This document shows, piece after piece, positions 27,300 through 59,397 of a stretch of DNA of 64,000 bases. Where the stretch lies: positions 214,830,001 to 214,894,000 of the forward strand of contig OZ024742.1 of assembly GCA_964016885.1 (NCBI GenBank), read 5' to 3'. This stretch comes from Eledone cirrhosa (taxonomy: Eukaryota). How positions within the stretch are numbered: position 1 is the stretch's first letter; the number at the start of each line of letters is the position of its first letter. The notes beneath the pieces are model-generated. The model was not told where the DNA came from and searched no databases. It was given only the letters and a program-made list of their open reading frames with translations. Made by a program: the position numbers and the translations under genes.

Positions 27300-27610
27300 A
27301 CTTGTTTATACAATTCTTTCTGCCTTTGTTACTCTAATTATAAATTATAGCTTTAAAGAATTAGCTTTTAATGAATTCCCTTTTCTATCAACCAATAACT
27401 TCTACCCACCCACACACCACCCTCTCCTACCACCTGAAGAGACCTATAAATACCATATTTATTTGTTGATACCCAGATTCCTGTTGATTTCTAAAGAATG
27501 AAACAGTTCTAGGCCTGTAGAATCTCATCTATATTAAAACTTTTATTCTCTACTATGTATTGAGTACCTTACTTACTGTGGTTACTTCCGATTCAACCCG
27601 TAATAACGTG
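27300..27610 (+). mobile_element. PLE pLTR/tail fragment
   Basis: 27480-27610 is near-identical to 48350-48480. It has a degenerate hammerhead core, the ATTGAGTAC tail motif, and ends in (TA)n. Confidence 0.65.
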
Positions 27611-27634
27611 TATATATATATATATATATATATA

Positions 27635-27790
27635 TATTAAAATAACACATTAAAGTTTAAGCAAACAATCTCTGCTTTCACCCTTAATCTTTGCTTAAAC
27701 TTTAATCTTTTATTTTAATAAATATTTGCTCTAGGGTTCTTATATATTTGATATATATTTATCCTTATTTGTATTTTAGGCTTCACATTT
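27635..27790 (+). mobile_element. Small foldback-plus-tail element in (TA)n
   Basis: Arms 27635-27665 and 27690-27720. The right arm and tail match 56750-56870. Confidence 0.7.
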
Positions 27791-27824
27791 ATTATTATTG
27801 TTATTATTATTACTATATATATAT

Positions 27825-27980
27825 AGGAAAAAGTATGACCCCGACGGCAGAGCTCAAGCCGTTTCGACGGCTATTTCTGCCGTCGGGGTCATACTTTTTC
27901 CTATTTCCCACTCTACTACCCTATGTATTGAGTACTCTGGTGCGTTATGGTCCATCTGGTTCCTTACCACAATTCCTTTG
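27825..27980 (+). mobile_element. Mini foldback-plus-tail element, family H
   Basis: GGAAAAAGTATGACCCCGACGGCAGA and its reverse complement, then a ~77-nt tail, with (TA)n on both sides. Confidence 0.85.
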
Positions 27981-28799
27981 ATATATATATATATATATAT
28001 ATGCATAAGTATGTGGGGTTGGCCTCACCTCCCTATCACCCTACATTTGTTCTGCTGAATCACGTGTAATAATTGTAAAGTGTGTTTGTGCCTGACCGCG
28101 AATAATTGGATAAAGAAAATGGAGAAATATAATGAAGAAGAAAGAAGGAGTCAGTATGATTTACAATATTTACAATTTCATACGTCAGATTGTCACGATT
28201 GAGACTCGTGTGAAGAGAGATACGAAGATTAAACCACTCCCAACTCCGTGGCTTTTAAAGCAGTCGTCCATATCCTCCCTCGTCCGAATCAGTAGGACGG
28301 TGGATCCGGCCTACGTCTGGTGTTTCCAACTCTAATCCTATTGACGATGCTTAATAGGCTTGCATTTTTGGAAAATTCAGGCAGATGAACTCAGTGTAAT
28401 TTCGAAATCCTGAGTATACTAATGGATGAATCAACTACCAGTTGCATGCTAGACGATGTGCTTTTCTTTTCGATTCATTGGAACGTTTTGCATCCCTCGG
28501 AATAACCCGGTTTGTTCCAGATATGATGAAAAACCAACTACATTTGAGGTGACCATCAAGGAAAGCGGATCTCTAGTATATGTAAATACCAAATCATGAT
28601 AGAAATCTGCCTTATATACATATATATATATATATATATATATATATATATATATATATATATATATATATATATATATATATATATAAACAAAGTAGAG
28701 ATTTGACTGCGAGCTCCTGCGAATTTGGCTAATAACCTCTTTAAATCTCTTCAGTCTTAAACAGATTATTATCTAAAGGCGCCCATTACTATATCCATT

Positions 28800-55297: not shown

Positions 55298-56984
55298 TCT
55301 CTCTGTGTAAATTGAATTGAGATCGAATTATCGTGGTAGTCGAAGGATACATACAAATCAGAATTGTTATTCAAGTGTGGACAATACATCATGTTTGAAA
55401 ACCTTTTACAATGTCTTCAATAATTTGAAATCCTACCTAACCTATTCGAAAAGAAACCCACAAAATCGTAGGAGCAGTGTCATACTACAGTTTAAGGACA
55501 AATATGTCTGTTAAAAATGTATTAAATATTTCATAAAAATGTACACTGGAAAAATGAAATCTGGTCCGAATAATTAAATATCCGGATGTTTTATTGCGGA
55601 ATTGGGAGTCGATAGGATTCTTATCTTTCCTACATATGACATTGTAATTTATATGCTGTCAATTGCTCTGATCATTTCGTTTATATAACTAATGATAAGA
55701 TAATTATCGTCATATATGGAATTAGGACTTTTTTGCTTCAAAATTTCAATACGGCAAAATTTATTTACTTTGTGATGAAAAGTTAACCATTCAAGTTTAC
55801 ATCCTATATTAACATAATTAATTGCCCCACAAGGTAATAGTATGTTCCAGCTTTTAATTGGTATCAGCCTGTTCGTTGACAGGTTTAATGAAATATTCCG
55901 AGAAAAAGTATGCTCTCACCCATATTATTTTCTTCCAGGCGTAAGTCATGAGTCAGAATTCGTGTTTATATAATTTAAAATACATTATATACATATATAT
56001 GATAAACACATACATAGACTTGCCTATATATATGAATATATATTAAAATAATTACAAGTGACATACAGACATATATACACCTATACGTATTTATGTGTGT
56101 TTATTTACAAGCGTTTATATAATTATATGTATACACACAGACACACACCCACACACAGACACACACACCCACCCACAGACACACACACACACATATATAT
56201 ATATATATATATATATATATATATATATACATATATTATGTGTATTTAGTGTATACGTTCGTATTTGTGCGGGTACATATCACTCGGGTTTATGTGTGCG
56301 CGTGTTTATATGTACGTGCATGTATATGCATGCATGGCGGGTTTTTTCGCGTATTCTTGTGTATGTACGTATATAGAGACGTGTATGTATATATTTAATT
56401 ATTAGTGATTTTAATAACCTCTGTCATTTCCGTTCTACTAATTTATTTACATTATTTTTAACTCTGAAGCTGAGTATCATTCGGTTTCCTAAATAGAATA
56501 TTTGTCTAACGACTCCATTCATACCATAAACGTTGTTTTGTCTTCGCGTGTAATTGTTTTTACTCGCTCCACATAACGGCGTATTATCTTCGCTTTTTTT
56601 CGGTCATTGCCAGGGAACGTCTTCACGAACCAAAGTATCGTCTTCCTGTTTTCCTGCGGTTGCAAGGTTTTTCGAAATATTTACTTCTGCGTTCACAGAT
56701 TGATTTTTTTAGTTCCAGAAGTTCCCGTTAAGGATGAAAGCAGCGATCCTTTGCTTAAACTTTAATCTGCTATTCTAATAAATATTTGCTATAGAGTTTT
56801 TATATATTTGATATATATTTATCATTATCGAACCCTCTTTGGATTTTAGTCTTCACATTTATTATTATTACTATACATATATATATATACATATACATAT
56901 ATATATATATATATATATATATATATATATATATATATATATATATATATATATATATAAATAATTACAACATTGACATAAACG

Positions 56985-57981
56985 GCCATAAGTACCGGAA
57001 GATATTTAATCGCCATACAGTAAAAATAGTATACTCTTGCACCAACAATGTAAAAATCTATATCACCGGTAAACACAAAAGCCCTCCACTGTACGGATGC
57101 TCATGTAGAAGACATGATACATGTCCACTAGACAAACAGTGCAACACTCCGGCAGTTTTATACAAAGCAGAGTTTACCTCCACCAACCAGAACCACCAAA
57201 CTGACGCTTGGACCTACGTTAGGATGTCAGAGACCCGGTTTAAAAACCGGTTCCGGAATCACGAAACAACATTCAGATATGCTTAAAAAAACATACCACC
57301 CACGTCGCAAATCACGTGTGGGGCCTTACGAACAATGGTAAGCCTTTTTCCATCAAATGGCCTATTTTTGGAAAGATCTACCGCCTACATCAATGGGTCA
57401 AAATTTGTCGGCTTTGTAATTCCGAAAAATGGTGTATACCCCTCACAATTTGCTTCGGATAAGCACTGCCTCAATACACGACTCGATCGCTTTCGTGGCT
57501 GTCCCCATGTGAAGAAATATATTTTAGACAAATGGCTTAGGCCTGACTAACAGGTCCAGAAGTACCCTTCGATTTACTGACAATATTGTAATTCAGTGTA
57601 TTTGGATATTTGGAGTCAACTAGAAGAAATTATTGGACTTTTATTTTCATTCTAAATTGACTCTGGTCTCTCAAGAGATATCTCCCTTATAATCTTACCT
57701 TATTTTTTTTTAAATAACCACTTTTTATATACCTTTTTTTCCTAAACTACCTCCCCTTTGGTAAACTCTTTTGTTATGTCACGATAGGGAAAGCACAATC
57801 AACCATAGGAGCTCATCTTTGTTTTTATTTTTCTCATGACAGGCCGAATGAATTGGGGCCCAGAACCCAACGAAAGTTGAGTAATTGTTTATGTCAGTGT
57901 TGTAATCCTTATCCATACAAAATTCGTCCTATGGACTGTGTGCTTTTATTCTTGGATATTTCCATTTAACTTTTACTTCAG
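56985..57981 (+). mobile_element. PLE 3' relic: GIY-YIG endonuclease and 3' non-coding region, (TA)n-flanked
   Basis: CNTPAVLYKA, TYVRMSETRFKNRFRNHETTF, CRLCNSEK and LNTR..CPH. Confidence 0.8.
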
Positions 57982-58095
57982 TATATGTATATGCTGTATG
58001 TATATATATATATATATATATACAGTATATATATATGCTGTATATATATATATATATATATATATATATATATATATATATATATATATATATAT

Positions 58096-58566
58096 AAACA
58101 AGAAAGACGCTTTTATTTGTACATACCTATTTATTTTGTTAATCGTACTTCAAAGATGTAAGGCAGTAGTATAACAATTGCCCTTCGTGTTCTCTTCTGA
58201 CAAAAATCCAAGCATGATGTATATATCCATTGATATGTTACCGGCCATATGTGTTATTACCTTCACCGACCAGTAAGGCATAAGCTTACTGTTCGGCCAA
58301 GGGTATAACACGAATGACCGGTAACATATCAATAGATAGATATTTACATCGTGTTTGGATTTTTGTCTGAAGAGAACACGTAGGGCAGTTGTTATACCCC
58401 TGCCTCACGGCTTTGAAATACGTATAATAAATATGTATGTACAAATGAATGTGTCTTTCTTGTGTATTATTATAATAAACCTCCGCATGAACTTGAAAAG
58501 TGAAGTGCTTTATATCTGTTAAGTAAAAGCCGGCCGATTTTCAATCAACCAACTTTCTTCAATTGT
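58096..58566 (+). mobile_element. Foldback PLE derivative with ~180-bp diverged arms and a right tail
   Basis: Palindrome centred near 58281. The tail 58466-58566 has GTGAAGTGCTTTATATCTGTTA. Confidence 0.85.
58361..58432 (+). ncRNA. Type I hammerhead ribozyme with extended stem II
   Basis: TTTGT-CTGAAGA-stem II (GGCAG/CTGCC)-GAAA-TACGTA-TA-ATAAA. The mirror copy has a mutated core. Confidence 0.72.
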
Positions 58567-59397
58567 ATATATATATATATATATATATATATATATATAT
58601 ATATACAGATCAGAGCAAACAGCACGGACACTCTATCTCAAAATTATTTTTGAAAAGCATTTAGAAATGCGCAACCGGTAAAAACTTAAAAACTTAAAAC
58701 CACAACTGAATACTAACCCATACAATCACTAATACTCTTTTATTCCTAATTAAACCATTTTTCAACTGTGAACAATTTGTCAGCATTTTCTATTCCGTTT
58801 ACCAATATATATATATATATATATATATATATACATATATATATATATATATATATATATATATATATATATATATATATATATATATATATATATGTAC
58901 GTATAGTATAGTTGATAATATATGTTTATTTAAAAACATTTTCAAGTAGTGACTACGTCTTATACTTAGTCTAGGCAAAAGAAAAGGGAAGTAATCGACG
59001 GTAGTACCGTTTCTCACATCTAAGTGGTTGTCAAGACTACATACCATTTCGCTTCTGCCGAGAATTATAGAAGCTGGATTCATATAGCATACCATAATTA
59101 GAAATTAGTATAGGTGCTCTGAAATAGCGATGTTTAAATGAATGTACGTATTATATATTTCATAATATACTGTATGTTCATATTAAAACATTTTGAAAAT
59201 GTCTAGTAAATTATTATTATTACTGTTATTATATATATATATATATATAGATTTTGAGTTTATGTTGGTTGTATACCAACACCTCAGTATGCAGGCTGGA
59301 GCACTCGACGAAGTGCGCAGGTTGGTTTGGTTACTCCGGAGTAGTGTAAAATAAAGTTAAATAAAAGTCAAATGATTAAAATTTAGCTTCGTTTATT

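Follow-up and report, generated by a model that had tools for sequence, protein, structure and literature searches.

The reverse transcriptases (RTs) of Penelope-like elements (PLEs) are the sister group of telomerase. The PLE 'tail' is known as a one-sided extension (PMC8557442, PMC3846280). For the anole element Poseidon_Ac, studied in vitro (Frangieh et al. 2024, PMC11167929), the tail is bounded by two internal RT starts; both strands are extended, a dimer is predicted and RNA located 3' of the start is required. That study identifies no RNA binding motif, and the text of its Figure S1 gives two short GGC...GCC stems that are not placed against the start positions. Craig et al. 2021 (PMC8557442) characterise the Hydra clade of PLEs by an RWK N-terminus, a DKG to DKT change, a GIY-YIG endonuclease without CCHH and the CxCx5C, CxxC and CxH motifs, and the Hydra tails published there use GAGC. 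We analysed a stretch of 64,000 nucleotides (the window) from the 3.0 Gb genome of Eledone cirrhosa (GCA_964016885.1, contig OZ024742.1, positions 214,830,001 to 214,894,000, forward strand), where a sequence-only reading had noticed a GAGT-containing decamer in the tails of several PLE families and had proposed that it positions the RT. The decamer turned out to be one strand of a bulged hairpin, and intact 5' ends carry two such hairpins, M1 and M2, between the hammerhead ribozyme and the ATG. The M1/M2 pair in the element RNA probably serves as a two-fold scaffold that docks two RT subunits and fixes two start sites.

All eleven decamers listed by the sequence-only reading were present at the places and on the strands given. 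Each lay 42–62 nt before a (TA)n run, much as had been claimed, but this distance differed by family; the conserved distance is that to the insertion end upstream of the hairpin and not that to the terminal (TA)n. A twelfth exact decamer (63802–63811, minus strand), which has no (TA)n and stands opposite a long interspersed nuclear element (LINE) reading frame, is a chance match. Enrichment was evaluated in 1.1 Mb of stretches chosen by position outside the window. The word preceded a (TA)5 run by 35–70 nt in 34 of 1322 flanks, compared with 2 on the opposite strand, 1 at a distance of 100–135 nt and a mean of 0.1 (maximum 1) in dinucleotide shuffles, and the motif is thus enriched over shuffled controls. 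In the same DNA, (TA)4 followed 42 of 59 word matches against a background of 10%. The eleven window sites represent seven families (four copies of A, two of B, and C, C2, D, E and F) in four groups. Tails of the groups A, B, D and C/C2/E/F aligned with one another at the shuffled baseline (0.40–0.55 versus 0.50), which rules out a single recent family as the source of the motif, whereas the tails of C, C2, E and F are related to one another (0.57–0.75). The three sites with the reported ATC(A/T)GTTA continuation all come from the related families C, C2 and F. The upstream ACTC, claimed for several sites, was intact in 7 of the 11 window copies. The copy at 38870–38879 has ACCC in its place, and GTGAAGTGCT (58500) is a mutated copy of the usual family F form, GTGGAGTGCT.

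Judged by protein motifs, hammerhead and insertion into (TA)n, the motif carriers appear to be Hydra-clade PLEs. The PLE assignment is borne out by the reading frame upstream of the 34981 site (family C) and its intact relative L124, which hold RWR, DKT, CxCx5C, CxxC and CxH and lack CCHH. The RWK-like signature is seen as RWR with DKT in family C, and RWR or RWK also occurs in B, C2, D and H. The C-terminal GIY-YIG domain without CCHH, with CxCx5C, CxxC and CxH, was read from the L124 protein, an open frame of 741 aa; Pfam gave no match for L124 itself and a GIY-YIG match for the homolog P0002, and the only named protein matches were from Argonauta. A hammerhead in the pseudo-long terminal repeat (pseudo-LTR) and insertion into (TA)n were both found. 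In pattern searches, families B, C, C2, D, E and F each had a hammerhead core upstream of the motif; Rfam did not score the cores of the motif families at its threshold. The family A core is non-canonical, with a CUGANGA box one base short (L189:1450–1560, minus strand) and a palindromic stem III loop; this family nonetheless has many near-identical copies. Read-through copies tie A, B, C2, D and F to the same type of N-terminus, and family E, for which there is no direct link to a reading frame, has a tail related to those of C and C2. The motif was present in 6 of 17 hammerhead-core families having at least two copies (1.164 Mb), and it is limited to the Hydra clade in the data examined.

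The motif forms the 3' strand of a bulged hairpin, RCUC-P2-UN-GAGY-RCU, composed of a 4-bp stem, a 2-nt bulge beginning with U and an inner helix, P2, of free sequence. When sites were chosen on CTC...THGAG alone, P2 positions 1–3 were paired in 56/66, 35/54 and 32/39 cases (p = 0.0005 each). RNAalifold, applied to 19 examples of equal length, gave the bulged hairpin unprompted. CTC and GAG were invariant in this alignment, the outer stem pair varied between G-C, A-U and U-A, and double changes were found at two pairs not selected on (10 and 8 of 19); a model-fitted alignment agreed with this covariation. The ACTC/GAGT helix anticipated by the sequence-only reading is real and shows compensatory changes. 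Rfam searches of window positions 24000–64000 and of eight metagenome loci returned no relevant match. ACTC/GAGT also makes hammerhead stem III in some Hydra families. The tail motif was considered as a second hammerhead and rejected, the catalytic core being absent beside it.

The motif that had been noticed was real and enriched, but it was only the first of two hairpins and had been measured to the wrong end. In full-length family C copies, the second motif lies 8 nt past the long end, ahead of the ATG. When loci were searched by the protein N-terminus alone, families C, C2, H (L060), I (L143, L174) and G (L077) each turned out to carry both motifs. In L165 the first motif is decayed and the second intact, a 5'-cut family A copy has the second motif, and families D and F have it as well. 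The D and B read-through copies were located by a pattern requiring CTC, and only the remainder of their second motif constitutes a test. The flanks of the two hairpins are themselves linked: the 22 nt following M1 are complementary to the 22 nt following M2, and the resulting duplex, P3, would have a hairpin at either end. Across the 29 families with both hairpins, P3 energy was −10.7 kcal/mol for same-family and −4.9 kcal/mol for cross-family combinations (0 of 20000 permutations), whereas the 5'-flank control gave −2.8 versus −2.6 kcal/mol. Families A and B likewise form P3, and the ATCAGTTA continuation in the sequence-only reading is one of its strands. At the 5' ends of L212, L217 and L219, P3 spans the ATG; folding of the scaffold and translation may be mutually exclusive there.

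Each family has two fixed ends, a short one upstream of the motif and a long one downstream, which places the motif within the PLE tail. The ends mostly fell 5–9 nt 5' of M1 (short) and of M2 (long). The distance from the junction to RCUC was 5–9 nt in 239 of 278 deduplicated ends, a set without the long ends of A, B and E, whose references have no canonical M2; of 57 family A long ends mapped on a second reference, 52 lay 6 nt before M2. As mapping references, J (L165) was unusable, containing TA runs, and K contributed only 2 ends. Metagenome loci with both a terminal and a read-through copy had the same end spacing by eye, and 13 of 14 modal spacers started with TA. Back-to-back inverted insertions joined a short to a long end in 86 of 88 cases, two long ends in 2 and two short ends in none; in position-chosen DNA outside the window, 22 of 23 inverted pairs were short plus long. 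These pairs display the one-sided extension between alternative ends that defines the PLE tail, although the M1–M2 spacing, at 55–106 nt in 29 families, exceeds the described tail length of 30–40 nt. No terminal copy extends as far as M2, and short ends contain neither hairpin. M2 must therefore act on the template and not in the end of the complementary DNA (cDNA). In some copies of families B and D, (TC)n or (CA)n takes the place of (TA)n at this junction; the insertion target therefore need not be pure (TA)n.

The breadth of the hairpin was determined in 78 metagenome loci retrieved by protein (31–38% identity), 61 of which had an N-terminal match. A further filter blind to the motif, an open ATG preceded by at least 90 nt, kept 51 loci, which collapsed into 39 families. 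At least one hairpin was found within 170 nt before the ATG in 33 of these families and two hairpins in 22, compared with 5 on the reverse strand, 0 in the interior of the open reading frame (ORF) and 0.9 in shuffles. These counts follow a best-CTC rule; a nearest-CTC rule, which undercounts, gave 32 families, 15 of them with two. A covariance model, some seeds of which came from the same loci, matched 63 of the 78 loci, with 118 of 126 matches on the coding strand; the 4 window sites (of 11) that escaped it are mutated copies or have a long loop. The 4-bp stem, the 2-nt bulge and RCU were kept at 31–38% protein identity, while the flanks were at random identity. Among the six Hydra consensus sequences seen in PMC8557442, three (one coral, two sea cucumber) hold clear hairpins by eye; one consensus has two hairpins before the ATG, that of the sea louse has variants, and the remaining two are unclear or short at the end. 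On these sequence comparisons, the hairpin is conserved across phyla within one PLE clade.

That the motif positions the RT remains the best reading, with the fixed distance taken to the upstream end. Beyond the docking of two subunits, we lean slightly towards a fuller proposal, namely that one two-fold symmetric RNA scaffold directs the subunits of a telomerase-related RT dimer to opposite strands of a single cut and primes both insertion ends, thereby causing the tail and the fold-back insertions, and that it constitutes a portable module of ~130 nt. The RNA would fold so that M1 and M2 flank one P3 duplex, and two RT-endonuclease subunits would bind the two hairpins. The endonuclease would nick both strands of a (TA)n tract, and each 3' end thus exposed would anneal by 2–5 bases to the UA-rich spacer that precedes one of the hairpins. 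Synthesis by one subunit would start before M1, yielding a short end with the hairpin uncopied, and that by the other before M2, yielding a long end with M1 copied as 'tail'; the two cDNAs would then be joined head to head. What is known as the PLE tail would then be the spacer that separates these starts. The scheme agrees with the in vitro results on Poseidon, namely two starts, extension of both strands, a predicted dimer and dependence on RNA lying 3' of the start (PMC11167929). For a full-length copy, the scaffold would have to lie downstream of the reading frame, which requires a tandem or circular transcript; PMC4209133 discusses the cleavage of tandem RNA by dimeric hammerheads.

Several observations weigh against the scaffold. 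At the place of M2, family B shows nothing more than an unbulged GCAC/GUGC hairpin of 4 bp; family I lacks P3 and has UUA instead of RCU; and of the 39 metagenome families, 6 have no hairpin and 11 only one (some 5' ends being cut or rearranged). Lone hairpins are weak (z of −1.9 to +0.5 for 7 window copies), and when whole units are folded, M1 forms in 24 of the 29 families and M2 in 22, with family D forming neither. The wobble counts (G-U 7, A-C 3) do not fix the strand, and P3 is equally stable on both strands. The end mapping (388 deduplicated ends, nine families of the same genome) counted only ends at most 16 nt from a hairpin, and the kinship of the families means that the permutation p-values overstate independence. 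In the Neptune-type family FAM1, two ends separated by 60 nt occur without the motif, which is therefore not universal. Poseidon initiation proceeds without target homology, whereas the Hydra spacers here offer 2–5 nt of UA (PMC11167929).

An unlikely alternative is that the twin hairpins form a packaging or translation switch in the 5' untranslated region (UTR), bound by the element protein, with the starts set by UA spacers or by the nearby hammerhead. M2 ends 10–50 nt ahead of the ATG, and the P3 helices that span the ATG would suit such a switch. It leaves unexplained why each end keeps 5–9 nt from its own hairpin while the M1–M2 spacing ranges over 55–106 nt. Such a switch can be compatible with a scaffold that fixes the RT starts. 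If the motif instead acted as a duplex DNA site, whether as an endonuclease recognition or homing signal or as an internal promoter element, the near-palindromic GAGYRCTC with its invariant CTC and GAG would be accounted for, and there is precedent in the D. virilis Penelope tail, which is needed for endonuclease recognition as cited in PMC11167929. The pairing of P2 and P3 is kept while their sequence changes, which recognition of duplex DNA does not need, and the insertion targets are (TA)n tracts without the motif; we consider a DNA site very unlikely.

More doubtful still is a role of the structure in single-stranded cDNA or antisense RNA, such as self-priming or the joining of the two arms. 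Antisense self-priming has been proposed for PLEs (PMC3846280), and the strand tests, both the wobble counts and the P3 energies, leave the strand unfixed. Terminal copies include neither M2 nor the 3' strand of P3, and in short ends M1 is missing too; the cDNA ends therefore do not contain the structure. The excess of model matches on the coding strand is consistent with sense use and does not prove it. It is hardly credible that M1 and M2 are functionless relics of an old tandem duplication of the element end. The pair could have arisen by tandem duplication, a common event in PLEs, but the stem, bulge and RCU persist with compensatory change at protein identities where the flanks are random.

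In the window, family A contributes four M1 hairpins: at 27910–27936 (+), within the family A fold-back insertion at 27826–27980, whose left arm has the short end and right arm the long end; at 35253–35279 (+), within a fold-back insertion at 35167–35324; at 49770–49796 (−); and at 50726–50752 (+), within a fold-back insertion at 50608–50797. Both family B copies of M1 are altered, the one at 27547–27568 (+; long end ~27610) by a mismatched outer pair and the one at 48416–48437 (+; hammerhead core 48350–48372) by mutations in the 5' strand. Family C is represented by an inverted arm (31617–31758, −; hammerhead core 31676–31717), which stops at the short end and lacks the hairpin. It is followed by an inverted N-terminal piece of the Hydra-type frame with the RWR and DKT motifs (31714–32349, −) and by the RT thumb and C-terminal GIY-YIG endonuclease in two frames (32350–33603, +), with CxCx5C, CxxC and CxH. 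The 3' pseudo-LTR holds a hammerhead core (34863–34904, +), M1 (34969–34990, +), with the short-end junction 7 nt upstream and the long end at ~35051, and the 5' strand of the long-range helix P3 (34997–35006, +), corresponding to the ATCAGTTA continuation; the partner of this strand follows M2 in full-length copies (L124), outside the window. In this insertion (31617–35051), the inverted arm joins the N-terminal third of the frame directly to the 3' pseudo-LTR, an arrangement that suggests a template jump.

The remaining M1 hairpins belong to family E (38870–38899, −; ACCC for ACTC, hammerhead core 38968–39010), family C2 (40343–40366, +; hammerhead core 40239–40275, with a short-ended inverted arm ending at ~37681), family F (58480–58509, +; a decayed copy with hammerhead core 58367–58418 and a short-ended inverted arm ending at ~58097) and family D (59300–59342, −; long inner loop). 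The last lies within a fold-back insertion at 59250–59758 that has its long end on the left, its short end on the right and hammerhead cores at 59411–59447 (−) and 59665–59701 (+). Its inverted junction at 59500–59612 is perfect and its arms are identical over 159 nt, which marks it as very young. Two further Hydra-type tails, of family G, had been missed by the sequence-only reading (27637–27813 and 56690–56876); M1 is decayed in each of them and has a long loop, and the family G M2 (L077) carries a cUUCGg tetraloop.

Other elements share the window. A Neptune-type family with a CCHH endonuclease (L144:3015–3200, +; window 46713–46950) has its two alternative ends, separated by 60 nt, just after an ATG. 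In its read-through copy, a small stem follows each end, without sequence shared with the Hydra hairpin; these stems are possibly a clade-specific counterpart. A hammerhead family without the motif (L079:700–2400, minus; window 40770–41430) consists of four head-to-tail units ~550 nt apart and is retrozyme-like. Rfam gave a weak type I hammerhead at 35535–35579 (−; 29 bits, below threshold) in a PLE-like family without the motif. Positions 1100–22200 hold a nest of about six non-LTR elements with an APE endonuclease and RT, each preceded by a zinc-knuckle ORF1; one of them (17147–20281, 1044 aa) is nearly intact.

Internal RT initiation and the one-sided tail are puzzles of PLEs, and a twin-hairpin signal would explain both. 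The scaffold predicts two hairpins and two starts, one per strand, linked by a helix. With the twin hairpins as a simple marker, Hydra elements could also be annotated up to their true ends, and the module, if portable, could be used to insert other RNA at (TA)n sites. The sequence-only reading knew of no description of the motif and we found none in the openly accessible literature (Repbase notes and subscription articles excluded); its GAGT words, sought in the text of the Craig supplement, returned unrelated passages only, and the hairpin is apparently undescribed. The elements described here resemble the Hydra clade of Craig et al. 2021 (PMC8557442) in the RWK-like motif, DKT, CxCx5C, CxxC, CxH, the hammerhead and (TA)n insertion. 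The Hydra description in that paper mentions no hairpin downstream of the hammerhead. Family C, measuring 3724 nt (~3.7 kb) from hammerhead to hammerhead, is longer than the 'generally <3 kb' given there, which is a tendency and not a strict trait (PMC8557442). Poseidon_Ac resembles the Hydra families in having two starts or ends and a one-sided tail, but its tail of 30–40 nt lies inside the ORF, whereas the Hydra tail of 55–106 nt lies in the 5' UTR; the available text shows no sequence motif common to Poseidon_Ac and the Hydra hairpins (PMC11167929).

How PLEs hold their template bears on the origins of telomerase. In telomerase, the template-boundary element is situated 5' of the template, where it halts synthesis. 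It is an RNA helix next to the template, is bound by the RNA-binding domain of a related RT and sets one limit of copying, and the Hydra hairpins would resemble it in this. The direct analogy drawn by the sequence-only reading is nevertheless not supported, as the hairpins are a symmetric pair located 3' of the insertion ends and would set the beginning of synthesis, the opposite geometry. The hepadnavirus epsilon is a bulged hairpin near a start codon that templates protein priming from its bulge, and R2, which has a 3'-UTR element, starts at the 3' end of its RNA. Both are, like the proposed scaffold, structured cis RNAs that recruit an RT and set initiation, but neither is known to come as a pair that serves two DNA strands.

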